A DNA stretch of 32,000 bases from Archangium violaceum Cb vi76 (GCF_000733295.1 NZ_JPMI01000075.1:18240-50239), one strand, 5' to 3'; shown: positions 8,530-22,915, counted from the stretch's first letter. The notes: generated by a model not told the origin, from the letters alone. Numbers and translations: made by a program.

Positions 8530-11500
8530 TTACTCCTTGTCCTGCGGCGGTTGCTCGGGCGGGCCGACGCCTTCCAAATCCCTCGGCACCTCCACCACGC
8601 CCGGGGGCAGCGGCCAGGGTTCCCAGCCAAACGCCGCGCGCCGGTCGTGGCTCCTCCTCCCGGGCAGGAGGTTGCACGTGAAGGCCTTGGACTCCTGGAT
8701 GGAGACGTTCGGATCCGCCGTGAAGCCAATCAGGTCATTCGTGCTGTCACCGTGCACACGTCCCGTGTAGCCCCAGTGGTACGGCAGGCCCACCTGGTGC
8801 ACCCGCCTGCCGCCGAGCCGCAGCGGCCGCATGCGCTCCGTCACCAGCACCCGGCATTCGATTTCCCCGCGTGCCGTGTACACCGTGCACCACCCTCCGT
8901 TCTCCAGCTCGGCTTCCTCGGCCAGCTCCGGAGACACCTCGACGAACAGCTCCGGCTGCAACTCGCTCAGCCAGGACAGCCAGCGCGACATGCCGCCCGC
9001 CGTGTGATGCTCGGTGAGCCGGTACGTGGTGACCACATACGGGTAGCGCGGATCCCCCCACGCCCGGTGCATGGGATTGTCCTTACGCCGCCACTCGTGC
9101 CGCGCCGGATTGCACTGCTGCCCGTAGAGGAAGTTGGGGACCGGTGACTCCAGTGGCTCGTAGTGCGTGGGCAGCGGGCCGTCCATCATCCCGCTCGGTG
9201 CGAACAGCCAGCCCTTCCCGTCCGCCTGCATGAGGAACGGATCATCCCCGGAGATGACATCCAGTCCCCGGTCGCCCTTGTCCGCCCGGTACGAGGGTGG
9301 ACGGTCCGCGATGAAGTCCGGTACGTCCTCGCCCGTCCATCTGCCCCGCTGCGCGTCCCACCAGACGTACTTCTTCCGCTCGCTCCAGGGGCGGCCCTCG
9401 AGGTCCGCCGAGGCCCGGTTGTAGAGGAGGCGCCGGTTGGCCGGCCACGCCCAGCCCCACTCGGAGGCCACCCATGTCTGCTCGCGGCCCGGCTTGCGGC
9501 GCGCCGGCTGGTTCACCCCGTCCGCGTAGCACCCCGAGTACAGCCAGCAGCCGCATGCCGTGGAGCCATCGTCCTTCAGCTCCGTGAAGCCAGACACCGG
9601 CTTGCCGTCCGCCACGGTGCAGCCGTTGATCTCCCTCAGCACGGCCTCGGCCTCGGGCTCCTCGCGCGGGCCCTTCGTCGGGTAGTCCCACGTCAGGGCC
9701 TGGATGGCCCGGTCCTTCTCCTCCCTCGAGTCCGCGTAGAGCTTCTTGAGCCGCCGCCCGAGCTCGTAGAGGAAGGACAAGTCACTGCGCGCCTCGCCGG
9801 GAGCCTCCACGGCCTTGTGGTGCCATTGCAGCAGGCGCTGGGTGTTGGTGAAGGTGCCCTCCTTCTCCGTGTGCGCGGCGGCCGGGATGAAGAAGACCTC
9901 GGTTTGAATGTCCTGGGGCCGCACGTCGCCGCGGAGCACCTCGGGGGCGGAGCGCCAGAACTCGGCCGTCTCGGTGAGGGTGAGGTCGCTCACCACCAGC
10001 CACTCCAGCTTCTGCAACCCCTTGCGCTGGAGGGCGCCGTTCATCGAGCCCACCACGGGGTTCTCGCCCATGACGAAGTAGCCCTTCACCTGGCCGTCGG
10101 CCATGTTGGCCACCGTGGACATGTGCGAGTGGTCCCCGGTGAGCTTCGGTATCCAGTGGAAGCCCCACTCGTTCTTCTTCGTCGCGGCGTCGCCGTAGTA
10201 CGCCTTGAGGAGCGAGACGATGTACTTGGGGAACTGGCTCCACCAGCCGCTGGCGGACTCGTTGTTGTGGATGTACTGGGCGAGCCGCTGCGCGTCCGGC
10301 GCGTGCGGCATGGGGATGTAGCCGGGCAGCAGGTTGTAGAGGGTGGGGATGTCGCTGGAGCCCTGGATGGAGGCGTGGCCTCGCAGGGCCATGATGCCGC
10401 CGCCGGGCCGGCCGATGTTGCCGAGCAGCAACTGCACGATGGCGGCGGCGCGGATGTACTGCACGCCCACCGAGTGTTGCGTCCAGCCCACCGCGTAGCA
10501 GAAGGCGCTGGTGCGCTCGCGCCCCGAGTTGTCGCAGAGCGTCTTCGCCACCTTCAGGAACAGCTCCTTCGGCACGCCGCAGATGCGCGAGACGACGTCC
10601 GGCGTGTAGCGCGCGTAGTGGCGCTTGAGCACCTGGAAGACACAGCGCGGGTGCTGGAGCGTCTTGTCCCGGGGCACCTCGGTGATGTGTTTGCCGCGCA
10701 CCTTGCCGTGTCCACCCGCGCCCGGCTCGGAGAAGACCTCCTTGTGGCCCGCGGCGGGCACCACACCGTCCATGCCCTCGTACTGCCAGGTGTGCGGCCC
10801 GTACTTGCCCGTCTCCGGGTCATAGCCGCTGAAGAGGCCGTCCAGGTCCTCGGTGTCCTGGAAGTCCTCGCGGAGGATGGCGGGCGCGTTGGTGTAGTGG
10901 ACGACGTAGTCGTGGAAGTAGCGCTCGTTCTCCAGGAGGTAGTGGATGAGGCCGCCCAGGAACGCGATGTCCGAGCCCGCGCGCAGCGGCACGTACGTGT
11001 CCGCCATGGCGCTGGTGCGCGTGAAGCGCGGATCCACGTGGATGAGCGTGGCGCCGCGCTCACGGGCCTCCATCACCCACTGGAAGCCCACCGGGTGACA
11101 CTCGGCCATGTTGCTGCCCATGATGACGATGCAATCCGCGTTCGCCAGGTCCTGCTGGAACGTGGTGGCACCGCCCCGGCCGAACGAGATGCCCAGACCG
11201 GGCACCGTGGACGAGTGTCATATTCGGGCCTGGTTCTCCACCTGGACGATGCCGAGCCCGCCGGTGAAGAGCTTCTTGATGAGGTAGTTCTCCTCGTTGT
11301 CGAGCGTGGCGCCGCCCAGGTGGGCAATCCCCAGGGTGCGGTTGAGCGTCCTCCCCTTGTCGTCGTGAGACTCCCAGGTGGAGTCACGTGCCTGCTTCAC
11401 GCGCTCGGCGATCATGTCGAGCGCCTTGTGCAGGGGGATGCGTTCCCACTGCATGGCGCGGGGACGCCGGTAGAGGACATCCGTGACGCGGTGGGTGCCG

Positions 11501-11826
11501 GTGACGAGCTGGAAGGAGGCGGCGCCCTTGGGGCAGAGCCGGCCACGGGAGATGGGCGAGTCCTCGTCGCCCTCGATGTCGAGAATCCTGCCGTCCTTGA
11601 CGTAGACCTTCTGCCCGCAGCCCACGGCACAGTAGGGGCAGATGGAGCGGACGACCTTGTCGGCCTGGACGGTGCGCGGCGCGAGCTTCTCGCTGCGCGC
11701 GGACATCGCCGTCTCACCGAGCGCGGTGGAGTCCTTGTTCCGCAGCTGACGGAGGAGCGGCCAGCGGGAGAACAGAGCGAAGAGTCCCAAGACATGCCTC
11801 CGGAGAAGACGTGACTCCGAAGGCAA
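8530..11826 (-). CDS. fdnG: Formate dehydrogenase alpha subunit (Mo/W-bis-PGD), selenocysteine-containing; ORFs 11218-11826 and 8530-11205 are a single gene
   Basis: The N-terminus carries a twin-arginine-like LLRRHVLGLF and the 4Fe-4S motif CPYCAVGCG. The sequence …VENQARI-TGA-HSSTVPGLGISFGRGGATT… matches the …ARV-U-HGPTV…FGRG… region of E. coli FdnG as I recall it. Both halves are in one frame. The start (TTG at 11826) is uncertain. Confidence 0.9.
11188..11220 (-). promoter_or_regulatory. Sec-UGA (11218-11220) plus a SECIS-like hairpin (11188-11206)
   Basis: The minus-strand RNA reads UGA CAC UCG UCC AC-GGUGCCC-GGUCU-GGGCAUC. This gives a 7-bp stem (one G-U pair) with a GGUCU apical loop, starting 11 nt after the UGA. 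Confidence 0.7.
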
Positions 11827-11920: not shown

Positions 11921-12439
11921 CTAGAGGACGCCGATGACCTCGCCGCGGGTGATGAACTCACCCCGGACGGTGTAACCCGAGTACCACGCGGTGTTCCGGG
12001 TGCCGTTCTTGTCCACCTGGAAGTGGGTGAGCGCCTGGGTGACAGCGCCGGTCCCGCCGACGTTGCCGAGCGAGCACCGGTCACACGTCCTGTCGGTGGA
12101 GTTGGCGGTCCTGTTGAAGTGCCACATGCGGAACACGTTGCCATCCGCGAAGGTATGCGACACCGCGTTCTGGTTGCCGCTGCCACTGCCGGTGCAGACG
12201 GCGCTGGTGGTCCGGATGGTGAAGTTCCAGTACATGGAGCCCGCGAACATGGCGTCGACCGGGTCCAGGTTGCATCGGCCGGTGAGGTCCACCGCGCCGT
12301 GGAACGCGCCGCTCGAGTAGTACGTGGTGTCCGTCACCGTTCCGTCGTGGGGTGCGCGCACCTCGAGTGCGATCGCCACCGTGGGAATGAGCGCCAGGGA
12401 CGCCAGCGCCGCGAGGGAATGCTTCAGGGTGTGAGGCAT
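11921..12439 (-). CDS. Secreted minimal M23 peptidase paralog P1 (degenerate HxH motif)
   Basis: Signal peptide LAALASLALIPTVAIA. It has HxxxD (FHGAVD) and MWHF, and the block GNVGGTGAVTQALTHFQVDKNG, in which the first His of HxH is Leu. The start at 12439 has an AGGAA RBS; the ATG at 12460 is an alternative. Confidence 0.8.
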   Translation of the reverse strand: MPHTLKHSLAALASLALIPTVAIALEVRAPHDGTVTDTTYYSSGAFHGAVDLTGRCNLDPVDAMFAGSMYWNFTIRTTSAVCTGSGSGNQNAVSHTFADGNVFRMWHFNRTANSTDRTCDRCSLGNVGGTGAVTQALTHFQVDKNGTRNTAWYSGYTVRGEFITRGEVIGVL

Positions 12440-12531
12440 GGTTGGTTCCTTTCGTGCCACCGGCCGGAGAGCGGAACCGGACGGCTCCGCTCCCTGGCCC
12501 GGTGCCGGGCTCGAGATACGGCCCGCTCGAA

Positions 12532-13059
12532 TCAGTCGAGGACGCCGAGCGTCTCGGTGCGGTCCACGGCCTCGCCCTTGGTGGTGTAGCCGGAGTACCA
12601 GGAGGTGTCGTACGTGCCGCTCTTGGTCTGCTGCATGTGCGTGTGGGCGCCGGTGGAGTTACCCGTGGAGCCCTCGTCGCCGACCTGGCAGCGGTCGCAG
12701 GTCTTGTCCACCGAGGCGGCCGTCTTGTTGAAGTGCCAGATGCGGAACTGCCAGCCGTCCGCCCAGGTGTGCAGCGCCTCGTTCTGGTTGCCGCTGCCGT
12801 TGCCCGAGTTGCAGTAGTGGGCGGTGGTGCGGATGGACACGTTCCAGTAGACCGAGCCCACCACGCCCGTCTCCACGCCCCAGTAGTCGCAGGTGCCGCT
12901 GGACACGTCGATGGCGCCGTGGAACGAGCCGCTCGAGTAGTAGGTGGTGGTGGTGACGGTGGCGGGGTACGGCGCCTTGACGGTGTGGGCGGTCACGGCC
13001 GCGGGGACGAGAGCCAGGGAAGCCAGGGCCGCCAGGGACAGCTTCATCGTGTTGCGCAT
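12532..13059 (-). CDS. Secreted minimal M23 (beta-lytic/LasA-like) peptidase P2
   Basis: Signal peptide MRNTMKLSLAALASLALVPAAVTA. Motifs FHGAIDVS (HxxxD), IWHF, GDEGSTGNSTGAHTHMQ (HxH). Four conserved Cys including CDRC. Confidence 0.85.
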   Translation of the reverse strand: MRNTMKLSLAALASLALVPAAVTAHTVKAPYPATVTTTTYYSSGSFHGAIDVSSGTCDYWGVETGVVGSVYWNVSIRTTAHYCNSGNGSGNQNEALHTWADGWQFRIWHFNKTAASVDKTCDRCQVGDEGSTGNSTGAHTHMQQTKSGTYDTSWYSGYTTKGEAVDRTETLGVLD

Positions 13060-13096
13060 CGTTTTTTCCTCTCGAGCCGGTGCACGGCCCTCGTGA

Positions 13097-13103
13097 GGGG
13101 GGG
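13097..13103 (-). repeat. Poly-C(7) tract (G7 on the plus strand) in the B1-P2 intergenic leader
   Basis: Read directly from the sequence. The homologous positions carry C10 (17370-17379) and C6 (16052-16057). Confidence 0.9.
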
Positions 13104-13110
13104 TGGACGT

Positions 13111-14103
13111 CTACGGAACCTGCTGCATCCGCTGCTTCTCCCTCAGGATCAGGTTCCACTCCTGAAGGTCCAGACCGAGAACTCGAATCCACGCGTCGAT
13201 CTCCGGCGCCAGGCTGGGGTCGGTGCTCCGCAGCCGCTGCAGCTCGGGAATCGCTCCAATGAAGCCCAACTGGGCGATGCTCTGCAGCAGCGCCTTGCGC
13301 ACCCCGGCATCCTGCTCGTCGCGGTACATGGCGAGCACGGACTGCCGGGCGCTGGCCATCTGCTCCGCGGGCACGCCGCCCAGCGCGAGCGCCGCCGCCT
13401 TGCGCACCTCGGCATCCTCGCTGCGCAGCAGGGATTGAATCTTCCCGGCCGACTCGGCGCTGATCATCTGCGTGTTCATGTTGCCGAGGATCTTCGCCGT
13501 CACCTTGGGATCGGTGGAGGCGGTGGCGGCGGACACGGCGGCATCCGAGGCCGGGCCGTGGTAGCCCGCGTAGACCTCCTGGATGTCCTCGACGATGTTC
13601 TGGGCCGCTTCCTGGCGCACCTCGGGGGAGGCGTCGCGCACCAGCTTCTCGTACGCGCCATCCGTGCTCTCCAGGGCGCTGGTGCGGCGCATGGAGCGCA
13701 CGGCGGCGGCGCGCAGGGCCGGGTCACGCTCCTCGATGGCCCGCTTCGCCACGGCCTTGATGGCCTCGGGGTCCGCGCCGCGCTCGGTGCGCGCCACCAG
13801 GGCGGCCGCGAGGTGCTCGGACATGACGGGGTCCGTCTCCCGCTCGAACGCGGCGCGGAGCTCGCTGTCCGGCAGGGTGACGGCGGCCTCGCGCAGCAGC
13901 GTCCGCATGTACTTCTTGTACGCCGCGGAGTTCGACTCGAGCCCCTGGCGGATGGAGTCCATCAGGCCCTGCACCGAGCAGCGCTCGCCCTCGAGCGCGG
14001 GGCCGGGGGCGACCACCTGGGCCGCGGCCACGCCAGGCAGCAGCGCGCACAGCGTGAGCGCCAGCAGGAGGGGACGGGTGGAAAAGGAAGGGGTGCGTGT
14101 CAT
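13111..14103 (-). CDS. Secreted HEAT-like repeat protein B1 (330 aa)
   Basis: Start trimmed to MTRTPSFSTRPLLLALTLCALLPGVAAAQ (signal peptide). HEAT-like repeats: DPALRAAAVRSM, SPEVRQEAAQNI, DAEVRKAAALALG, DAGVRKALLQSIAQLG. It aligns end to end with the paralog at 17386-18384. Confidence 0.75.
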   Translation of the reverse strand: MTRTPSFSTRPLLLALTLCALLPGVAAAQVVAPGPALEGERCSVQGLMDSIRQGLESNSAAYKKYMRTLLREAAVTLPDSELRAAFERETDPVMSEHLAAALVARTERGADPEAIKAVAKRAIEERDPALRAAAVRSMRRTSALESTDGAYEKLVRDASPEVRQEAAQNIVEDIQEVYAGYHGPASDAAVSAATASTDPKVTAKILGNMNTQMISAESAGKIQSLLRSEDAEVRKAAALALGGVPAEQMASARQSVLAMYRDEQDAGVRKALLQSIAQLGFIGAIPELQRLRSTDPSLAPEIDAWIRVLGLDLQEWNLILREKQRMQQVP

Positions 14104-14117
14104 GGTCGTTCCCGGGC

Positions 14118-15341
14118 TCACTCGTGGCGGTCGAGGCAGCTGAAGGGATCCTGGTTGGGCAGGCTGTTGTAGAGCCGCACGAAGTCCAGGATGCCGCTCG
14201 CGTAGAGGCGCTCGAAGTCCTGGTAGATGGGCTGGAAGCGCGGATCCATCGTGGCCATGTTCGCCATGACGGGCAGGGCGCGCTTGCCGGCGGTGCGCGC
14301 GGAGAAGCGGAAGAGGGCCCACTTCACGCACAGCGATTGCTCGGTCTCGAAGGTCTTGGCGAACAGGTCCAACACCTTGCCCTTGTCCAGGGACAGGGAG
14401 AGGTTGTGCGCGGCCGCGTCCCGGCCCTCCTCGCTGCCCTCGCCCACGAGAATCCTGGCGAAGCGCTCGGTCTCCTCCGCGCTGAGCAGGGGCGCGGCGT
14501 GCATGGGCATCATCTGCCCCAGGTAGCGGATCTGCTCGTCGGGCGACTGGGCGCCGATGGTGAGCAGCTTGTCCATGTAGGGGCCGATGTTCTCGTTCTG
14601 CTTGAACTCGCGCTTCATGACGCGCGCGATGGTGCGGGCCGCGGCCCAGCCCGCCTCACCGGACACGGGGTCATTGGCGAAGGTGGTGAGCTTGTCGAGC
14701 GCCGCCGGCGCCAGCCGCTTCTGCGTGTCCAGCGCGGAGAGGATGCCCGCGCGCCGCTCGGTGGGGAGGGCGTTGTCCAGGCCCATGTCCAGCAGCTTCG
14801 TGGCCACCTGGGGCTGGTGGACGGCCTCGGAGTCCCGCACCGCCGTCAGGTACACCCCGAAAGGCTTGCCCGGGGCGTCGAGCGACCAGCTCAGCACCTG
14901 GAGCGCGTTGGCCGGGTCCTTGCCAATGAGCTCCGTGAGGCGCTCCCTCAGGAAGTCCCGGACGAGCCCGTCCCGCGAGTTGAGCAGCGGCTCGGCCCAC
15001 TGGCGGAAGTTGTGGATCGTCACGCCCTCGTTGAAGCGCTCCAGCTCCTTCCAGCAGAGGGTCTCCTGGAAGCGCGGGGCCTTGGCCTCCTCGCCCGGGA
15101 GCGAGGGGGCGCCGGTGGGACTGGGAGTGTTCGTCTTCCGGGCCGGGCCCTGCTTCGCGGACGCCTGAGCGGCGGCGGGGCCCGTCTCCACCGGCCCTTC
15201 CTTCGCCTCACCTCCGCGGCCAATCAGCGCCACACCGGCCAGCACGGCGACGAGGCCGGCTCCGGCGGCGAGCAGCGGCTTGCGCCGGCTGGAGGTGCCT
15301 GGAGGGGAAGAGGAGGGGGGCGGCGGAGAAGTGGGAGTCAT
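14118..15341 (-). CDS. Single-pass membrane protein A1 with a Pro-rich N-tail and a helical periplasmic domain
   Basis: One TM helix (PLLAAGAGLVAVLAGVALIG). Conserved blocks shared with 18401-19615: CW(K/E)(E/D)LERFNE, SGEAGW, RWALFRF(S/A)ARTAGK, DPF(S/G)CLDRHE. The stop lies 14 nt upstream of the B1 start. The start is taken at MTPTSPP by homology to A2; the ORF is open to 15398. Confidence 0.7.
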   Translation of the reverse strand: MTPTSPPPPSSSPPGTSSRRKPLLAAGAGLVAVLAGVALIGRGGEAKEGPVETGPAAAQASAKQGPARKTNTPSPTGAPSLPGEEAKAPRFQETLCWKELERFNEGVTIHNFRQWAEPLLNSRDGLVRDFLRERLTELIGKDPANALQVLSWSLDAPGKPFGVYLTAVRDSEAVHQPQVATKLLDMGLDNALPTERRAGILSALDTQKRLAPAALDKLTTFANDPVSGEAGWAAARTIARVMKREFKQNENIGPYMDKLLTIGAQSPDEQIRYLGQMMPMHAAPLLSAEETERFARILVGEGSEEGRDAAAHNLSLSLDKGKVLDLFAKTFETEQSLCVKWALFRFSARTAGKRALPVMANMATMDPRFQPIYQDFERLYASGILDFVRLYNSLPNQDPFSCLDRHE

Positions 15342-15440
15342 GGCGGTGGGCCCGGTCTGGGGTTCCATCTCTAGAGAGACCCCGGACCTCACCGCCATCT
15401 CACAAAAATGAATAAAACGAGAATTTCTCGGGAATTTGGA

Positions 15441-15466
15441 GCCTCCTGGTTTTCCCGCCAGGAGGC
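15441..15466 (-). terminator. 9-bp stem hairpin between the P3 stop and the A1 promoter region
   Basis: gcctcctgg (15441-15449) pairs with ccaggaggc (15458-15466) around an 8-nt loop. An AT-rich block (15399-15437) follows on the A1 side. Confidence 0.4.
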
Positions 15467-15490
15467 CGGAGGGCGGAGGAAGGCCCCCGC

Positions 15491-16015
15491 TCAGTCGAGG
15501 ACGCCGAGCGTCTCGCTGCGGTCCACGGCCTCACCGCGGGTGGTGTAGCCGGAGTACCAGGAGGTGTCCTTGGTGCCGTTCTTCTCCTGCATGAGGTGGG
15601 CGTGGGGGCCGGTGGCCTGGCCGGTGCCGCCTTCATTGCCCACCTGGCAGCGGTCGCACGTGCGGTCATACGAGTCGCTGGTCTTGATGAAGTGCTTCTG
15701 GTGGAACTTCCAGCCGTCCGCCCAGGTGTGCACCGCCATGTTGGCGTTCTCGTAGCCGTTGCCGTTGCAGACGACGCCGGAGGTATTGATGGTCACGTTC
15801 CAGTGGACGGAGCCCACCACGGCCGTCTCGGCGCCCCAGTAGTTGCAGCGGCCGCTGGAGACGTCGATGGCGCCGTGGTACCCGCCGCTCGGGTAGTAGG
15901 TGAGGGCGGTGATGGTGCCGGGGAAGGGGGCCTTGACGGTGTGGGCCGTCACGGCCGCGGGGACGAGCGCCAGGGAAGCGAGCGCGGCCAGGGTCATCTT
16001 CATCGTGTGACGCAT
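15491..16015 (-). CDS. Secreted minimal M23 peptidase P3
   Basis: The signal peptide is almost identical to that of P2 (MRHTMKMTLAALASLALVPAAVTAHTVKAP). Motifs YHGAIDVS, KHF, GNEGGTGQATGPHAHLMQ. The 3' end is near-identical in nucleotides to the P2 3' end. Confidence 0.85.
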   Translation of the reverse strand: MRHTMKMTLAALASLALVPAAVTAHTVKAPFPGTITALTYYPSGGYHGAIDVSSGRCNYWGAETAVVGSVHWNVTINTSGVVCNGNGYENANMAVHTWADGWKFHQKHFIKTSDSYDRTCDRCQVGNEGGTGQATGPHAHLMQEKNGTKDTSWYSGYTTRGEAVDRSETLGVLD

Positions 16016-16142
16016 CGTGTTTCCTTTCGGGCCGGCTTCACCGGCCCGCGTGGGGGGACTTCACTCATTGAAGAGGGTGCTGCCGCGCCGCCATCCCAGG
16101 AAAAACAGACAGGCCATGGGATGTCTGGCTTTGACGGGGAAC

Positions 16143-16667
16143 TCAGTCCAGCACACCGACGAGCTCGCCCAGCGAGAGGGCCTCGCCCACGGTGGAGTAG
16201 CCCGCGTACCAGGAGGTGTCCTTGGTGCCGGACTTGTCGCGCTGAAGGTGCAGGGAGTTGGCGGGAATGCCCTTGTCTCCCGCCGCGCCGATGTTGCAGC
16301 GGTCGCACGTGCGGTCAAACGTCTGGCCCGTCTTGTTGAAGTCCATCAGGCGGAAGGTGAAGCCGTCGGCGAAGGTGTGCTTCGCCACGTTCTGCGGGCC
16401 CGTCATGGCCGTGCCGCAGAGGGTGCTCGGAGTGTTGATGACCACGTTCCACGCCAGCGAGCCGGCGACGCCCGTGGTGATGGGGGTGGTGCCACACGTG
16501 CCGCCGTCGATGTCCACGGCGCCGTGGAACGCGCCGCTCGAGGAGTAGGTGGTGGCCGCCACGGTGCCAGCCAGCGGGGCGCCGACGTTGCGCGCGGCGG
16601 GAGAGGCGGCGGGGACGAGCGCGGCCAGCGCGGTGAGCGCCAGCAGGGACTTCATCGTTCGAGGCAT
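16143..16667 (-). CDS. Secreted M23-like paralog P4 (catalytic His residues lost)
   Basis: Start at MPRTMKSLL, with a GGAGGA RBS 8 nt upstream. HxxxD is kept (FHGAVDID). The middle His is replaced (LMDF instead of WHF) and HxH reads SLH (ANSLHLQRDKSG). Confidence 0.8.
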   Translation of the reverse strand: MPRTMKSLLALTALAALVPAASPAARNVGAPLAGTVAATTYSSSGAFHGAVDIDGGTCGTTPITTGVAGSLAWNVVINTPSTLCGTAMTGPQNVAKHTFADGFTFRLMDFNKTGQTFDRTCDRCNIGAAGDKGIPANSLHLQRDKSGTKDTSWYAGYSTVGEALSLGELVGVLD

Positions 16668-16734
16668 GGCGGAGTCCTCCCGGGCCGTGCCTGCCGCCCG
16701 GGTCATGGCTGTGAAGAAGGGGGGAGGAGACGGG

Positions 16735-16765
16735 CTGGGAGGCCCCGGACAGGCGCGCCTCCCAG
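16735..16765 (-). terminator. 9-bp stem hairpin downstream of the P5 stop
   Basis: ctgggaggc (16735-16743) pairs with gcctcccag (16757-16765) around a 13-nt loop. It lies in the 134-nt spacer between P5 and P4. Confidence 0.35.
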
Positions 16766-16801
16766 TGCACACGAGGCCCGGACAGGCCTGGTGACTACTG
16801 G

Positions 16802-17335
16802 TTACGTGGCGATGTTTCCGACGGTCTCGCCGCGGCTGAGGAACTCACCCCGGGTGGTGGTGCCGTCGTACCAGCCGGTGAGGTTGCTGCCGTTGCGGTC
16901 GACCTGCATGTGGGTGTGGGGGCCGGTGACGTTGCCCGTGCCGCCCTCGTCGCCGATCTGGCAGCGGTCGCACGTCTTGTCCACCGAGGCGCCGGTCTTG
17001 AGGAAGTGCCACTGGCGGAGGATCTTGCCGTTGGCGAAGGTGTGCTTCACCTCGTTCTGGTTGCCGCTGCCGTTGCCGTAGCACACGGTGCCGGTGGTCC
17101 GGATGGTGACGTTCCAGTGGAACGAGCCGTACGCGCCCGTCTCCACGCCCCAGTAGCCGCAGGCGTTGGCGCTGGAGATGTCCACCGCGCCGTGGAAGCT
17201 GCCGCTGGAGTAGTACGTGGTGGCCGTCACGGTGCCCGGGAAGGGCGAGCCGACCCGGACGTCGGCGGTCGCGGCCGCGGGGATGAACGCCAGGGAAGCC
17301 AGGACTGCCAGCGTCGTCTTCATCGTCTTACGCAT
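16802..17335 (-). CDS. Secreted minimal M23 peptidase P5
   Basis: Only the last 177 codons of the 509-aa ORF are credible. They give MRKTMKTTLAVLASLAFIPAAATA, then FHGAVDIS, QWHF, GDEGGTGNVTGPHTHMQVD. The RBS is GAGGAA. Confidence 0.85.
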   Translation of the reverse strand: MRKTMKTTLAVLASLAFIPAAATADVRVGSPFPGTVTATTYYSSGSFHGAVDISSANACGYWGVETGAYGSFHWNVTIRTTGTVCYGNGSGNQNEVKHTFANGKILRQWHFLKTGASVDKTCDRCQIGDEGGTGNVTGPHTHMQVDRNGSNLTGWYDGTTTRGEFLSRGETVGNIAT

Positions 17336-17369
17336 CGTTGTTCCTCTGGACCGGTGGACCGGCCCCAGT

Positions 17370-17379
17370 GGGGGGGGGG
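17370..17379 (-). repeat. Poly-C(10) tract (G10 on the plus strand) in the B2-P5 intergenic leader
   Basis: Read directly from the sequence. It lies 6 nt downstream of the B2 TAG stop on the minus strand. Confidence 0.9.
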
Positions 17380-17385
17380 TGTTCG

Positions 17386-18384
17386 CTACCGAGCCTGTTG
17401 CTGCCGCTGCTTCTCCCTCAGGATCAGGCTCCAATCCTGGTGGTTCATGTTGAGGACTCGAATCCAGCTGTCGATCTCCGACGTCATGCTCGGGTCGACA
17501 GCGCGCAACCGCTGGAGCTCGGGCACCGCGCCGGAGAAGCCGAGCCGGGCGATGCTCTGGAGGATGGCCTTGCGGACGGTGGGGTCCTTCTCGTCGCGGT
17601 ACATGCCGGTCAGCGACTGACGGGCGTTGGCCATCTCCGCCACGGGCACGCCGCCGAGCGCGGTGGACGCCGCGGCGCGGACCTCGGCGGAGTCGCTGCC
17701 CAGCAGCCGCTCGAGCTTGCGCGCCGAGTCGGAGCTGATCTCCCCCGTCATGAGCTGGCCGAGCACCTTCGCCGTCACCTTCGGGTCGTCCGAGGCCGCG
17801 GCCGCCGACACCGCGGTATCCGCCGCCGGGCCATGGTGCCCGCCGTAGACGTAATGGGTGTCCTCGACGAGGTTGGTCGCCGCTTCCATGCGCACCTCGG
17901 GCGAGGGATCTCTCACCAGGCGCTCGAACATCTCCCCGCTGCGCCCCAGCGCGCCGGTGCGGCGCATGGCGCGGACCGTGGCGGCGCGCAGGCCGGGGTC
18001 CCGGTCCTCCAGCGCCCGCTTCGCCACCACCTGGAAGGCATCGTCCTCCAGGCCGCGCTCGGTGCGCGCCACCAGGGCCGCCGCCAGGTGCTCCACCATC
18101 ACGGGGTCGTACTCGCGCTCGAAGGCGGCCTGGAGCTCGGCGCGCGGCAGGTTGACGGCGGACTCGCGCAGCAGCGTGCGCAGGTAGAGCTTGTAGGCCT
18201 CGGACCTGGACTTCATCCCGCGGCGGATGGAGTCCATCAGCCCCTCGACCGAGCACGTCGTGGGCTGGAGGGCGGGGGCCTCGCTCGAGGCGGACTGCCG
18301 CGCGGAAGCCAGGGCCGGCGCGAGCAGGCACACGGTGAGCGTCAGGGTGGGGAGCACGTTCATACGAAGGAAGGCGCGTGTCAT
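17386..18384 (-). CDS. Secreted HEAT-like repeat protein B2 (332 aa)
   Basis: Signal peptide MTRAFLRMNVLPTLTLTVCLLAPALASA. It is collinear with B1 (CSVEGLMDSIRRG, DPGLRAATVRAM, SPEVRMEAATN, SAEVRAAASTALG, ILREKQRQQQ). Confidence 0.8.
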   Translation of the reverse strand: MTRAFLRMNVLPTLTLTVCLLAPALASARQSASSEAPALQPTTCSVEGLMDSIRRGMKSRSEAYKLYLRTLLRESAVNLPRAELQAAFEREYDPVMVEHLAAALVARTERGLEDDAFQVVAKRALEDRDPGLRAATVRAMRRTGALGRSGEMFERLVRDPSPEVRMEAATNLVEDTHYVYGGHHGPAADTAVSAAAASDDPKVTAKVLGQLMTGEISSDSARKLERLLGSDSAEVRAAASTALGGVPVAEMANARQSLTGMYRDEKDPTVRKAILQSIARLGFSGAVPELQRLRAVDPSMTSEIDSWIRVLNMNHQDWSLILREKQRQQQAR

Positions 18385-18400
18385 GGGTGGGCTCCGGAGC

Positions 18401-19615
18401 TCATTCCTCGTGGCGGTCCAGGCAGCCGAAGGGATCGTCCGTGGGCAGGGAGAACCAGATGCGGTCGAAGTCGACGATGCCGCTGGCGTAGAGCTTCTCG
18501 AACTCCTGGTAGATGCCCTGGAAGCGCGGGTCCGTCATGGCCATGTCCGCCATGACCGGGAGCGCGTCCTTGCCCGCGGTGCGCGCCGCGAAGCGGAACA
18601 GGGCCCAGCGCACGCAGAGCTCCTTCTCGATTTGGAAGTTCTTGCCGTAGAGCTCCAGCGCCTGGGCCTTGTCCTCGGACATGGACAGCTCGTGCGCGGC
18701 CATCATGCGGACGTCCTCGCTGCCCTCGGTGGCCAGCAGCTTGCCGAGCCGCTCCGTGGCCTTCGTGTCGAGCGGCGCATCGGCGTCCATCCCCATCTCG
18801 GCCGCGAGGTAGCGCACCTGCTCGTCCGCCGACTGGCTGCTGATGGTGAGGAGCTTGTCGAGGTAGGGCTTGAAGTTGCCGGACTTCTTGAAGTCCTCCT
18901 TCATCACCCGGCCGATGGCGCGCGTGGTGACCCAGCCGGCCTCGCCCGAGGCGGCGTCCTGCGCGAAGGTGGCCAGCTTGTCGAGCGCCGCCGGCTCCAG
19001 CCGGGGCATGCGCTGCAGCTCGTCCAGGAAGCCCGCGCGCCGGCCCAGGTCCATCTTCTCGTCCAGCCCGAGCTCGGTGAGCCGCGCGGCCATCTTGGGC
19101 AGGGCCTTGGAGCCCCGCAGGCCGCCCATGAACAGCTTGAACTCGGCGGGCGAGGCCTCGCGCGCCCAGTCCAGCACCTCGCTGGCGCGGCCCGCGTCAT
19201 CGCCGATGAGCTCGCCCAGGCGCGCCTTGAGGTAGTCGAGGACGAGCGGATCCTTCACGGCCAGCAGCGGCCTGGCCCACTCGCGGAACGTCTCCAGCGT
19301 CACCGACTCGTTGAAGCGCTCCAGGTCCTCCCAGCAGACGGTGGTGTTGAACTGCTGGGGCTTCGACTCGGCCTGCACGGGCGCGTTCTGGCCGGCGGGC
19401 CCGCCCTTGGAAGCGGAGGGGCCGGTGGACGAGGGCTGGGGCGCGGCGGCCTGGGAGGCCTCGGGCTTGCCGCCCTCCTCGGAGGCGCCACGGGAGAGGA
19501 GCGCCACCGCGGACAGCAGGGCCACGGCACCGAGCGCGATCGCCACCTTCGGGCCGCGGCGGGCCGTGTCATTCACCGGAAGGGACGCGGAGCGATGGGA
19601 GGATTCTGGAGTCAT
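18401..19615 (-). CDS. Single-pass membrane protein A2, paralog of A1
   Basis: TM helix VAIALGAVALLSAVALL and the same conserved blocks as A1. The stop lies 16 nt upstream of the B2 start. An AAGGAC RBS precedes the ATG. Confidence 0.8.
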   Translation of the reverse strand: MTPESSHRSASLPVNDTARRGPKVAIALGAVALLSAVALLSRGASEEGGKPEASQAAAPQPSSTGPSASKGGPAGQNAPVQAESKPQQFNTTVCWEDLERFNESVTLETFREWARPLLAVKDPLVLDYLKARLGELIGDDAGRASEVLDWAREASPAEFKLFMGGLRGSKALPKMAARLTELGLDEKMDLGRRAGFLDELQRMPRLEPAALDKLATFAQDAASGEAGWVTTRAIGRVMKEDFKKSGNFKPYLDKLLTISSQSADEQVRYLAAEMGMDADAPLDTKATERLGKLLATEGSEDVRMMAAHELSMSEDKAQALELYGKNFQIEKELCVRWALFRFAARTAGKDALPVMADMAMTDPRFQGIYQEFEKLYASGIVDFDRIWFSLPTDDPFGCLDRHEE

Positions 19616-19874: not shown

Positions 19875-20088
19875 ACGAGGTGTGGCTTGCCGGAGGGGTC
19901 TGCTTTTCGACGGCCGCGGCAATCAGAGGTGCCATGACGCGCAGCCCCTCCAAGGAGAGCCGGCCGGCCTGATATTGGGCATACCAAGCCCGTCGTTGGC
20001 GCAGGACTCTCTCATCATGGACGATGGGGAGGGCTCGCAGCGTGGCCTCCGCGAGGGGCCGTGCTTCCAGGGGCACCTTGCTGGTCAT
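19873..20088 (-). CDS. Small ORF (71 aa), possibly the C-terminal remnant of an HNH-partner protein
   Basis: The ATG overlaps the upstream stop as TGATG. The sequence MTSKVPLEARPLAEATLRALPIVHDERVLRQRRAWYAQY… resembles the C-terminal helical part of ATPase-associated HNH proteins, as far as I remember them. Confidence 0.35.
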   Translation of the reverse strand: MTSKVPLEARPLAEATLRALPIVHDERVLRQRRAWYAQYQAGRLSLEGLRVMAPLIAAAVEKQTPPASHTS

Positions 20089-20300
20089 CACGAGCGGAAG
20101 TGATCGACCGTGCCGTTGAGGTCCCACATCGCGGTGTAGCCACAGCGGTTCTTGAAACCGTCCATGAGCTGGCCCCGGAAGGGGGACCACAGGTCGCGAG
20201 GACGCTCGGCGTGGGGGTTTCGCGAGAGCCAGTCTTGACCCGGCCGGCGGGCCCTGGCGTTGAAGTCCGGTGGTTCCGGAACGCGTGCGACGGGAATCAT
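20088..20300 (-). CDS. Small ORF (70 aa) resembling the N-terminal half of a TIGR02646-like HNH protein
   Basis: The ATG overlaps the ATPase-like gene stop as ATGA (20297-20300). The sequence …LWSPFRGQLMDGFKNRCGYTAMWDLNGTVDHFRS* fits the …CxYxE…(V/I)(E/D)HFxP… pattern, but terminates right after DHFRS. Confidence 0.45.
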   Translation of the reverse strand: MIPVARVPEPPDFNARARRPGQDWLSRNPHAERPRDLWSPFRGQLMDGFKNRCGYTAMWDLNGTVDHFRS

Positions 20301-22915
20301 CGCACCGCACCGCTCGCGACCAGCCAGCGGGGCCAGAAGGGATCGTTCCCTGGGAGCGTCTCCTGGAGCTTCTGGTTGATCTTTCCGGGTGACTCGTAAC
20401 CGGGCAGCGCCTCGTTGCGCATGTACGCCTCCGCGGCTTCGATGGCCTGCTCTGCTTCCTGGGAGCGTGCCTGCTTGAGGCCAAAGGTCTCGGAGACGAG
20501 CCAGTTGACCGCATCTCCCTGCATGGCCCAGGGTTGCTCCTCGACGAGGATGCGGCCCTGCTCGAGGCCGAAGTGGAAGACCTTGTCCCGCTCCGTATCG
20601 AAGTGGCGCTCCAATGAGGCCATCACCAGCGGTGAATGCGTGCTGGCGACCACCTGTACCTGGACTTCTCCCGTCAGCCGCTGGATGACGCGGAGCAGGG
20701 CGGGGAGGAACAACCGCTGCCACTTGGGGTGCAGGTGTGATTCCACCTCGTCGATGAGGAGGAGCAGTCGGTGGGTAACGGGCTGCCCGGCGAGGCGTGC
20801 GGCCTCACGGTGCTCGTTCCAGGACCAGACCAGCAGATAGGCGAGACCCAGAACGCGCCTCACCGCGGCCGATGCGTGGATGACCGGTACGGTGCCGTAG
20901 GACATCTCCAGCGTGGGGATGTCCAGGGCCTGGTGGATTGAAACACGGGCCGGGCTGCCGGGACGCAGGGGCTCGTCCGGCAGTGACAGCCCCGCGAGGA
21001 CCTCCTTCAATGAATCGAAGAGGCCGGTGCGCCGGTACTGCCAATGCACCCAGTCGCGCACCAGTCCGTTGCACCAGGTGGTGCCGTGCTCGTCCAGCCC
21101 GTTCCACAGGGTCTCCGGCGTGAAGCGGTACATGGACAGTGCGTCGGCGCGGCCATTGCCGGAAGGCACGGCGTTGCGGATGGGATCCCAGACGGAGAAA
21201 CCTCCATCGGCCCGGGCGTAGAGGGCGAGGGTGTGGGAGGCGGGCCACCGCGGAGGGCGCACCCACTGCTCCCTGACCGCATCGAAGTGGCCCTCCACGT
21301 CGGGGTCCGCTTTCGCGCCCACGAGAATGGCCGCCCTGGCTCGTCCCTCCTTGATTTCCGCCGACCAGCTTCCAAGGGAAACTCCATGGGTGGCCTTCAG
21401 CTCCTCGTCGCTCAGCGAGAGCCGGACGATGGACTCGGCAAGGCCCTCGCGCAGTGCGCTCGAATGGCGCAGGGTCTTGTCCTGAATGGCCGCATAGACA
21501 CGCTCCTCCTTGGGCATGTCGTATTGGGGATCCAACTCCCCCAGCACTTCGAGAGCCACGTCAACGAAGGTTCGGAGCTGGGTGTCGGTGAGCTTCCCCG
21601 CCAGCCGTTTCCAGGCCTCAGCGGAAGAAGCCCATCTCCAGGACTTGCCTCCCCATCGCTCGGTGTCGGCCACGATGGGCATACCAGGCTCGCGGCTCCT
21701 GGCGGCGCACAGTTGCTCCACCTCCTTCGGGTCCGCTCCGAGCCGCCGGAGCGCCTCCTGATCAGCCTCGTTCGACGGCGTCCATGCGCCAGCCAGCAGC
21801 ATGACGAGCAGTGCGGCCTCGTCCTCCCTTCCTGGGCGAGAGGGGGCCCGGTAGCCCGCCAGGGTCTGATAGGCGGACACCCGCCCTCCCGCCTCCCGGG
21901 CCAGCCGCTCCGCGTCGGCTTCTCGTACACCCGCATGGACGAGCACCTCGGCGAAGGACTTGAACGGGATGGGCTCGAGCAGGACATGGGGACGTCCACT
22001 TCCCGAGGCATCTTCCGGCACCACGACGAACGCGTTGCTCGTGACCGCTTCTCCCGGGTCGAAGTCCTCGAAGCCAGGAAGGAGGACGAGCGGCTGGGCC
22101 TGATGCGCACGCACGGCCCAACGCCATGCTTCCCGGCTCTCCACGACCAGGGCCCTCGCCAACCACTGCTCCCGCTCGGTTCGTGGGGACGTCGCCAGGG
22201 ATGCGGCGACGAAGAGCAGCGCCTCCTCTCGTGTCCCGCCCCGTACATGCAGTGGCTGGGGACGAGCCCCCTTGAGCCAGTCCCGCACGAACTGCGCCGC
22301 CTTCTGTCGCTCCCGTCCCGCCACGACCAGTTCGGGGGGGCAGGGGTTGGGTCCTGCCACGACCGCTCCAGCGGTGGAGGAAGTCCTCCACATCCGTGAG
22401 CTCCGCCGCGGGTTGTTTCAGGGCGGAAGTGGAGAACCAGCATGCCACGGCCGGGGTCTGCGCCAGCCAGGCCGCGAGGTCATCCGCATCGTAGACGCGC
22501 ACGTCGGCCCAGATGCCCTGGCGTCGCTTCTCGGTGACCCAGGCCTCCTTCTCCGGCTGCCCGAAACGTCGCGCGGTGACCGCGACATAGGTCGTGCGAG
22601 AGGCGTCGATGGAAGAGGCGGAGGCCTGCTGCGTGCGCTTGGTGAAGTCTTCCTCCAGCTTCGGACGGACCCTCTTCTCCACCGAGAGCTCCCAGACCGA
22701 TGGGCCGGCTGGCCAGAACGGCCCGGCCCTGGCCGAGATCACGATGCCGTCCCACCCCTTCAGCCGTACGCCGCTGTCGGCGGGCATGCTGATGGATTGA
22801 AGGGGGCGCTCGCCAGCAACAACCTCCGCACCAACTCGGGTAGCATGGGCGGCGCGTCGGTGCGCTCGGCCCACTGAACGAGTGCCTCTCCTTTGATATC
22901 CCTCAATGAGGCCAT
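20297..22915 (-). pseudogene. Large (about 870 aa) defence-like protein: conserved N-terminal domain, helical middle, P-loop-less ABC/AAA_21-type ATPase C-terminus. It is interrupted by two homopolymer frameshifts.
   Basis: Three collinear coding segments: 22915-~22804 (MASLRDIKGEALVQWAERTDAPPMLPELVRRLLLASAP), ~22803-~22341 (LQSISMPADSGVRLKGWDG…FLHRWSGRGRTQPLPP, other frame) and ~22340-20297 (ELVVAGRERQ…). The C-terminus has LLLIDEVESHLHPKWQR and VVASTHSPLV. Confidence 0.6.

Follow-up and report, generated by a model that had tools for sequence, protein, structure and literature searches.

Two ancient versions of a three-gene M23-type peptidase and ARM/HEAT-repeat envelope module in Archangium violaceum Cb vi76

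A stretch of 32,000 nucleotides from Archangium violaceum Cb vi76 (NZ_JPMI01000075.1:18240-50239; hereafter the window) was analyzed, and nine open reading frames (ORFs) at positions 11921-19615, every one on the minus strand, are considered here (Table 1). They encode a predicted minimal M23-type peptidase, designated P (P1 to P5), and two helical-repeat proteins, designated A and B (A1, A2, B1, and B2). The Myxococcota have a self-contained envelope module of three parts, and the locus carries two old forms of it, here called cassette 1 and cassette 2. As a tentative first choice, which we put somewhat short of an even chance, the module would remodel the producer's own wall in a controlled manner, with A and B directing P. 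A first-pass annotation of the sequence had proposed nine co-directional minus-strand genes forming two diverged copies of one unit. The coordinates bore this out, and the paralogy of A, B, and P is far above chance, with 51% identity between A1 and A2 (E 2e-143) and 65% between B1 and B2 (E 6e-139). P2-P5 share 49-58% identity with P1. On re-measurement, the spacers (14 and 16 nt from A to B, 51 and 50 nt from B to P) matched the earlier figures exactly.

A profile of P built from 30 family members matched solely M23 chains in the PDB, namely zoocin A (E 8.5e-4) and LytM, and the alignment spanned the WHF His and the TGPHxH motif. The Pfam Peptidase_M23 model (PF01551) scored P1-P5 below threshold, the best value being 19.1 bits for P1 against a cut-off of 28.7, and NCBIfam gave nothing significant. 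An AlphaFold2 model of P2 had a predicted local distance difference test score (pLDDT) of 88 and a predicted template modelling score (pTM) of 0.81. When it was compared with the PDB using Foldseek, the top 50 matches were without exception M23/LytM domains (probabilities ~0.92-1.00), including DipM, LytM, LasA, ShyA, EnpA, Csd1/Csd2, lysostaphin, and zoocin A. The TM-scores of these matches were modest (0.3-0.57), and the P domain is therefore divergent.

The roles of the zinc ligands, the two catalytic His, and the oxyanion-stabilizing Tyr in M23/LytM enzymes have been reviewed (PMC9662197), and the residues of P fit the LytM assignments. The zinc ligands (His and Asp of HxxxD, second His of HxH) are present in all five P proteins of the locus and in 87 of 89 family members. 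As in LytM, a catalytic His precedes HxH by 30 residues, and a Tyr precedes the first His by six. The catalytic set H-D-H-H-H is complete in P2, P3, and P5, as it is in all 56 P genes directly after B in the 54 genome loci described below. The motif set that the first-pass annotation had ascribed to every P therefore holds for these three genes and fails in the other two: P1 carries Leu instead of the first His of HxH, and P4 has lost both catalytic His (WHF changed to MDF, first His of HxH missing). Four Cys, including those of CDRC, are invariant in 89 of 89 sequences, a pattern that fits two disulfides in an exported protein. The signal peptide of 24 residues is followed directly by the folded domain, and the earlier description of an M23-type peptidase devoid of a propeptide or cell-wall-targeting domain agrees with both the fold and the catalytic residues. 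The mature protein has a near-neutral charge (median pI 6.4), in contrast to typical lytic enzymes, which are basic (PMC9662197). From sequence and model, P is predicted to be a divergent M23-type zinc endopeptidase of ~150 amino acids with the LytM fold, exported by the Sec route and cleaving peptidoglycan.

The relationship to beta-lytic protease and LasA suggested at first pass was not upheld. The example of M23A, LasA, has H(x)12D spacing, and HxxxD is characteristic of the LytM/lysostaphin group, M23B (PMC9662197). P has HxxxD, in the form HGA(I/V)D, and its PDB profile matches were zoocin A and LytM. LasA and BLP were among the fold matches of P2, ranking no better than LytM or DipM. Membership of P in M23A (beta-lytic protease, LasA, pseudoalterin) was thus ruled out by the HxxxD spacing and by the absence of a pre-pro-enzyme layout. 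LytM, lysostaphin, and zoocin A resemble P in fold, in the HxxxD and HxH zinc site, and in the spacing of His and Tyr. P differs from them in its four invariant Cys, in having no propeptide, occluding segment, or SH3b-type domain, and in falling below the Pfam gathering cut-off (in round figures, at most 19 bits vs 28.7). A profile search with P against 1.84 billion representative proteins returned 36 clusters (50% identity) at E up to 1e-3. Weaker matches clear the Pfam M23 cut-off at 81-207 bits, and the P relatives P0281, P0284, and P0273 score 86, 207, and 35.6 bits, respectively. The P family is tiny and nearly confined to Myxococcota.

The partners of P are helical-repeat proteins. B has a signal peptide, and its description as a secreted HEAT protein stood, since Pfam HEAT_2 matched B2 and B1 with 68.5 and 47.2 bits, respectively, against a cut-off of 27.7. 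Among 120 listed of the 378 homologues of B1, all with a named source were myxobacterial. A begins with a short N-terminal tail, and the basic residues that this tail places before a hydrophobic stretch of 19 residues suggest an N-in topology. A low-complexity linker of ~55 residues and a helical domain of ~310 residues follow. A2 likewise has one hydrophobic transmembrane stretch and a helical periplasmic domain, which contains three conserved Cys. No meaningful match to A was found in Pfam, NCBIfam, or PADLOC, where no curated model passes; the HEAT_2 match of A2 is weak (E 0.0035).

In the AlphaFold2 model of A1, residues 1-112 are disordered and helices start at 116, forming an all-helical domain with pLDDT above 87 (10-residue block means) over residues 131-420. 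Its best Foldseek matches were importin-alpha, Vac8, designed armadillo, and alphaRep proteins, so A is, as modelled, a membrane-anchored ARM/HEAT solenoid. Solenoids of this type generally bind proteins or extended peptides. An hhalign comparison of A and B was colinear across 257 columns (E 0.0012), and a distant A-like protein at locus L066 matched the B model with E 2.4e-8; A and B appear to be distant paralogues. The single-pass layout and helical periplasmic domain of A given at first pass were thus retained, and its description was amended to an ARM/HEAT solenoid related to B. The domain of A is acidic (median pI 5.2). Three Cys are invariant in A and one in B, and an N-terminal Cys occupies an equivalent position in both, kept even in distant lineages. 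For this residue a role in an A-B disulfide or in metal capping is possible.

Alternatively, P might cleave protein rather than peptidoglycan, with A and B serving it as substrates, export adaptors, or chaperones in a surface or matrix process peculiar to myxobacteria. Extended peptides are the typical ligands of solenoids such as A and B, some M23 enzymes, LasA included, do cut proteins (PMC9662197), and the small number of P clusters attests to high divergence. However, all structural neighbours of P are wall hydrolases or regulators of wall hydrolases, the positions of its oxyanion-stabilizing Tyr and catalytic His match LytM, and no gene for a candidate substrate accompanies the trio. We consider protein cleavage very unlikely.

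The case for a three-part module comes from its genomic linkage. An alignment of A was scanned against 185,579 species genomes, yielding 54 loci (designated by L numbers). Those with a named genus came from Archangium, Hyalangium, Cystobacter, Vitiosangium, Corallococcus, Myxococcus, Pyxidicoccus, and Citreicoccus, all myxobacteria; the 54 also include one metagenome-assembled genome (MAG) labelled Polyangia and one Myxococcus-like record labelled Comamonas. B came after A at all 54 loci, and P came directly after B at 51; two of the remaining three have P upstream and one ends at a contig edge. Whether A and B usually stand apart from M23 genes, a question raised at first pass, was thereby answered: they nearly always occur with P. 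In a scan of metagenomes seeded with P, B was directly upstream in 24 of 27 assessable loci, and one locus had an A-B pair 3 kb away. Distant lineages showed other gene orders, namely P-A-B (L063 and L066), P-A (L057), or B-P (L056); the contigs around the distant P relatives at L058 and L059 were too short to inform. By contrast, weak matches to P resembling ordinary M23 proteins (26-37% identity; L099-L147) had A or B at none of 49 loci. The flanking genes are not conserved between the Archangium and Myxococcus xanthus loci, and most genomes carry the three genes in a 1:1:1 ratio. The comparative case for A, B, and P as a self-contained functional trio is strong.

Synteny alone is no proof of binding, and A and B might be co-transcribed with P without touching it, performing an envelope task of their own, for instance sensing or the scaffolding of another machine, that needs local cutting by P. 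One lineage in which the A-B pair lies ~3 kb from P (L010, L074) would agree with this arrangement. The linkage nevertheless survives changed gene order, changed flanks, and deep divergence, and the equal gene numbers in most genomes also speak against it; a tight functional, usually physical, link is therefore the simplest explanation, and we give the arrangement without contact only a slim chance.

In L057 (853-2534; metagenome, 59% G+C), an extracytoplasmic function (ECF) sigma factor gene is followed by P and then by an A-like gene. This P passes Pfam M23 at 35.6 bits, and a fragment resembling a CHAT C-terminus lies upstream. There are hints in this layout that the module of the L057 lineage is under ECF-dependent (envelope-stress) regulation.

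The two cassettes differ in type, and the types are old. In a tree of concatenated A, B, and P sequences, the trios split into type I, which unites cassette 1 with the M. xanthus and Pyxidicoccus trios and with most of those from Corallococcus, and type II, which unites cassette 2 with those of Vitiosangium, Hyalangium, Cystobacter, Citreicoccus, and some Myxococcus species. When the A, B, and P trees were taken singly, each protein had its nearer relatives among trios of its own type from other genera, not in the other cassette of this locus. Since all three show the two-type pattern, the block was copied whole, as had been proposed. The tree of each type tracks taxonomy, and both types occur at separate loci in single genomes (L015 and L034, L010 and L046, L007 and L050). 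The tandem arrangement was found only in Archangium loci (L001, L002, L003, L045, and the window). A recent local tandem duplication, the event implied by the first-pass term 'tandemly duplicated', was ruled out by the trees, which make the types older than the split of the genera. The suggestion that both copies are maintained was supported by their retention in other Archangium genomes.

The trees also bear on the cassette boundaries. P3 and the upstream P genes at L004, L006, L007, L013, L016, and others form one tight clade; its members directly precede a type-I A gene, including in genomes that have no second, type-II cassette beside it, and P3 therefore likely belongs to cassette 1. P5 clusters with the P genes directly after type-II B. 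The natural units are probably A2-B2-P5-P4 and P3-A1-B1-P2-P1, which makes the original partition into A2-B2-P5-P4-P3 and A1-B1-P2-P1 doubtful.

P1 and P4 belong to a wider class of degenerate copies. Among the 54 genome loci, eight of the ten P genes in second position after B lack one or both catalytic His and keep the zinc ligands and Cys. All eight, P1 and P4 included, are from Archangium and lie in long-branch clades, P4 together with L001_8700. Identity between the window and its L001 orthologues is 69% for P1 and 87% for P4, compared with 94% for P3 and P5 and 96% for P2, the most conserved P gene of the locus. P1 shares 59% identity with its L002 counterpart and P2 96% with its L002 orthologue, and P3 and P2 are 72% identical to each other. 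In all, the protein divergence of degenerate copies is ~2 to 10 times that of intact ones. Protein divergence was used here because the ratios of nonsynonymous to synonymous change among orthologues from Archangium and among paralogues (0.1 to above 1) had to be set aside, the synonymous distances being implausibly small and the G+C bias at third codon positions extreme. The degenerate copies keep their zinc ligands, Cys, signal peptides, and intact ORFs in several species. P1 and P4 may be non-catalytic partners, as Csd2, EnvC, and NlpD are, or decaying copies.

The adjacent pairs of intact and degenerate peptidases (P2 with P1, P5 with P4) have a parallel in Csd1-Csd2 of Helicobacter pylori, an active and a degenerate M23 protein that are among the top fold matches of P2, and EnvC and NlpD offer a further one as degenerate M23 domains acting as regulators. 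P1 and P4 differ from Csd2, EnvC, and NlpD in keeping three zinc ligands, in occurring in Archangium arrays only, and in evolving fast. The copy number of P ranges from one per cassette up to three or four in tandem in Archangium genomes and soil metagenomes (L003, L005, L045, L068, L073). Variant copies in these arrays have Asn at a catalytic-His position, and one has Pro at the first zinc ligand.

A distant relative of P, P0274 (184 amino acids), lacks HxxxD and HxH and has no A or B neighbour (L060/L061, 8001-8555; a metagenome and MAG GCA_034691105.1). It is preceded by a 559-residue secreted protein of unassigned family, and its neighbours (Colicin-DNase/WHH, Lipase_3, DUF6310/DUF5953, an antitoxin, and a NACHT gene) give the region the look of a toxin island.

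In the controlled wall remodelling that we tentatively favour, A would be tethered to the inner membrane through its flexible linker of ~55 residues and B would be soluble in the periplasm. Both would bind P directly, and the pair is possibly joined through the homologous lone N-terminal Cys residues. A and B would set the site and timing at which P cuts peptide cross-links in the cell's own peptidoglycan during vegetative growth. They would thus substitute in trans for the built-in control of other M23 enzymes such as LytM and Csd3, which carry it as propeptides or occluding domains (PMC9662197), and their role would parallel that of NlpI or FtsEX-EnvC on other wall hydrolases. The Archangium P copies that have lost a catalytic His may serve as non-catalytic partners, like Csd2 or EnvC. 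Control of P by A and B could be either restraint or activation.

A functional analogue for such a role is NlpI of Escherichia coli, a membrane-anchored tetratricopeptide-repeat envelope protein that binds MepS, MepM, and other hydrolases, an M23 enzyme among these wall endopeptidases, and organizes or limits hydrolase action on the cell's own wall (PMC7049810). NlpI differs in being an outer-membrane lipoprotein whose clients are encoded elsewhere and which works with the Prc protease, whereas A and B bear no sequence relationship to NlpI and show a strict genetic link to a single peptidase family.

A further reading, which we hold to be unlikely, would make A and B the first dedicated trans-acting latency factors of an M23 peptidase. 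The solenoid pair would replace the propeptide, clamp P, and cap its zinc, perhaps by the lone N-terminal Cys acting as a cysteine switch, and would release P only at defined envelope sites or on export. The dead P paralogues would then be decoys or co-regulators.

The same proteins could also form a weapon with its guard, as the first-pass annotation had hypothesized: P would be exported past the outer membrane to lyse prey walls, and A and B, as proteinaceous inhibitors or immunity factors, would keep it inactive in the periplasm of the producer. In favour of this, the host is predatory, the active site of P is intact but P has no latency device of its own and would be dangerous if left unrestrained in the periplasm, and the lone conserved N-terminal Cys of A and B could cap the zinc of P. 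A precedent for a helical-repeat inhibitor exists in Bdellovibrio, where the ankyrin protein Bd3460 blocks the predator's own DD-endopeptidases Bd3459 and Bd0816, encoded at two loci, so that one repeat protein serves several enzymes (PMC4686830). This system resembles the trio in combining predator wall endopeptidases with an envelope helical-repeat protein. It differs in that the enzymes are of the PBP4 type and have a single small ankyrin partner, as opposed to two large ARM/HEAT paralogues of which one is tethered to the membrane, and in that inhibition was demonstrated, while inhibition of P by A and B is hypothesized only. Furthermore, the M23-domain WHIX effectors of type VI secretion systems are encoded next to genes for signal-peptide proteins (PMC12135965), as P is next to a periplasm-targeted partner. 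P differs from them in having its own Sec signal peptide and no type VI marker domain, and the WHIX partners are small polymorphic immunity genes, while those of P are solenoids conserved across genera.

Conservation and expression were examined through the orthologues in M. xanthus DK1622, MXAN_0551 (A), MXAN_0550 (B), and MXAN_0549 (P). The literature search found no paper naming MXAN_0549-0553, which accords with the first-pass remark that no role had been described for an A-B pair beside M23 genes. The trio is present across Cystobacterineae genera and appears to be vertically inherited, and 36 of 36 M. xanthus-group A sequences, many on genome-size contigs, fall into one cluster at 90% identity. 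It thus shows neither the strain polymorphism of known myxobacterial toxins nor the patchy spread and horizontal transfer that mark effector-immunity pairs. In the RNA-seq supplement of PMC6791715, MXAN_0549-0551 are expressed at ~22-90 reads per kilobase per million mapped reads (RPKM) through 96 h of development; at the first M. xanthus time point, the RPKM of P is ~2 times that of A and B. A sporulation-specific role was dropped as the leading idea because developmental expression is flat. A paper on myxobacterial sporulation implicates lytic transglycosylases, not M23 enzymes, and one on LssL of Lysobacter deals with an unrelated M23-SH3b enzyme.

In the prey-response data of PMC5857379, MXAN_0550 and MXAN_0551 appear in a single list, 'Nutrition vs Starvation, up', with log values of 5.6 and 4.3, and in its supplement neither is among the genes responding to live or dead prey. 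MXAN_0549-0551 were not found in the supplementary files of the outer-membrane vesicle proteome paper PMC4158809, nor do they have an entry in the supplementary table of a predation-versus-development transcriptome. Besides this lack of prey induction and the absence from the vesicle proteome files, the near-neutral charge of P, its lack of a wall-targeting domain, and the unusually heavy immunity cost of two 300-residue solenoids, one of them tethered to the membrane, count against a weapon. Taken together, expression and conservation lean, weakly, towards a growth-associated envelope function over a prey-induced or strain-variable weapon. We regard the weapon with its guard as a serious rival, somewhat less probable than wall remodelling.

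Several observations, on the other side, weigh against wall remodelling as the function of the trio. P stands at two to four copies per cassette in Archangium, and this expansion, with its fast-evolving extra copies, resembles an arsenal rather than a housekeeping enzyme. Two loci of the P family (L081 and L091) have neither A nor B within 6 kb. The expression evidence is thin and comes from another genus, P itself lies outside the differential-expression lists, and absence from a supplementary table is weak evidence. In addition, the authors of the prey transcriptome call M. xanthus constitutively toxic (PMC5857379), and a weapon is therefore compatible with the lack of prey induction.

The intergenic regions of the locus contain candidate RNA elements. 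The B2-P5 hairpin, GGGGCCGG-UCCA-CCGGUCC, ends just before the ribosome-binding site AGAGGAA. The general form of the B-P hairpin is GGGCCGG-loop-CCGGCCC, ending 1-2 nt before the ribosome-binding site of P, and it is kept in 35 of 45 spacers from other loci (L001-L054), across genera. Its paired changes include one pair at which GC becomes AU and a G-C/C-G swap in which GCCGG/CCGGC becomes GCCGC/GCGGC. The hairpin is absent in short spacers of 20-30 nt, those of the M. xanthus group among them. It may be an intercistronic stabilizer or a processing site.

A pair of hairpins, CCTCCTGG...CCAGGAGG plus CGAGAAATTCTCG, lies in the interval between P3 and A1, with T-runs and then a stretch rich in A+T after them, and a terminator scan gave a minus-strand match at 15430-15418. 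The element looks like a terminator, likely the boundary of two transcription units, and the promoter of cassette 1 may follow the hairpins. It cuts across the proposed P3-A1-B1-P2-P1 unit. The G+C content is 64-74% in the window and ~69% in the genome, for which the A+T-rich stretch after the hairpins is unusual.

The features of the locus are listed in Table 1. A1 is 100% identical to the hypothetical protein Q664_11785 of A. violaceum Cb vi76, and most orthologues support its start at 15341 (the methionine of MTP...).

Table 1. Features of the two-cassette locus (positions counted from the first nucleotide of the window)
Feature	Coordinates	Strand	Description
A2	18401..19615	-	404 aa; type-II protein, predicted membrane-anchored ARM/HEAT solenoid; ORF and start site
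B2	17386..18384	-	332 aa; type-II HEAT-repeat protein, predicted periplasmic; signal peptide, one conserved N-terminal Cys
B2-P5 spacer	17336..17385	-	C-rich tract, short G+C-rich hairpin, ribosome-binding site AGAGGAA
P5	16802..17335	-	177 aa; type-II predicted minimal M23 peptidase; H-D-H-H-H complete, 4 Cys
P4	16143..16667	-	174 aa; degenerate M23 paralogue; 3 Zn ligands and 4 Cys kept
P3	15491..16015	-	174 aa; intact predicted minimal M23 peptidase; probably a cassette 1 member
P3-A1 interval element	15408..15465	-	Two hairpins with T-runs after them; terminator-like
A1	14118..15341 (longest ORF from 15398)	-	407 aa from the MTPTS start; type-I protein, predicted membrane-anchored ARM/HEAT solenoid
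B1	13111..14103	-	330 aa; type-I HEAT-repeat protein, predicted periplasmic; signal peptide
B1-P2 spacer	13060..13110	-	C-tract, hairpin, and ribosome-binding site; layout as in the B2-P5 spacer
P2	12532..13059	-	175 aa; type-I predicted minimal M23 peptidase; active site intact
P1	11921..12439	-	172 aa; degenerate M23 paralogue; Zn ligands and 4 Cys kept

Two neighbouring loci were also annotated. A Septu anti-phage locus lies directly upstream of A2 (19897-22393, minus strand), in which PtuA (20297-22393, 698 amino acids) matches the PADLOC model PDLC00307 with E 9e-129. PtuB appears to be broken, with model positions 1-75 in one frame (~20300-20091), 123-191 in another (~20103-19897), and 76-122 missing; it is likely a pseudogene or the result of an assembly frameshift. 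At 8530-11826, also on the minus strand, the reading frame of a molybdopterin oxidoreductase resembling formate dehydrogenase alpha is interrupted by a TGA in frame (11218-11220), directly behind ...VENQARI; the protein has Fe4S4, Molybdopterin, and Molydop_binding domains. This TGA is probably a selenocysteine codon and not a real stop, because enzymes of the formate dehydrogenase alpha type carry selenocysteine at this position.

How a cell restrains wall hydrolases from its own sacculus is a central question of cell-envelope biology. Regulated wall hydrolases and helical-repeat partners are already known in general, and M23 enzymes are known to be controlled by propeptides or occluding domains of their own, by modification of the substrate, or by losing catalysis. 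New here are an M23 subfamily below curated thresholds, an A family lacking a curated model, a strict trio with tethered and soluble solenoid paralogues, and pairs of intact and degenerate peptidases. The trio would define three uncharacterized families, namely the M23 subfamily, the A family, and a specific HEAT family, and the genetically tractable M. xanthus has it in a single copy, MXAN_0549-0551. Should its function be predatory, P would provide unusually small lytic enzymes with a natural inhibitor, of interest for enzybiotic design. If A and B do direct P on the producer's own wall, a separately encoded, conserved solenoid pair would represent a different solution to the control of M23 peptidases.

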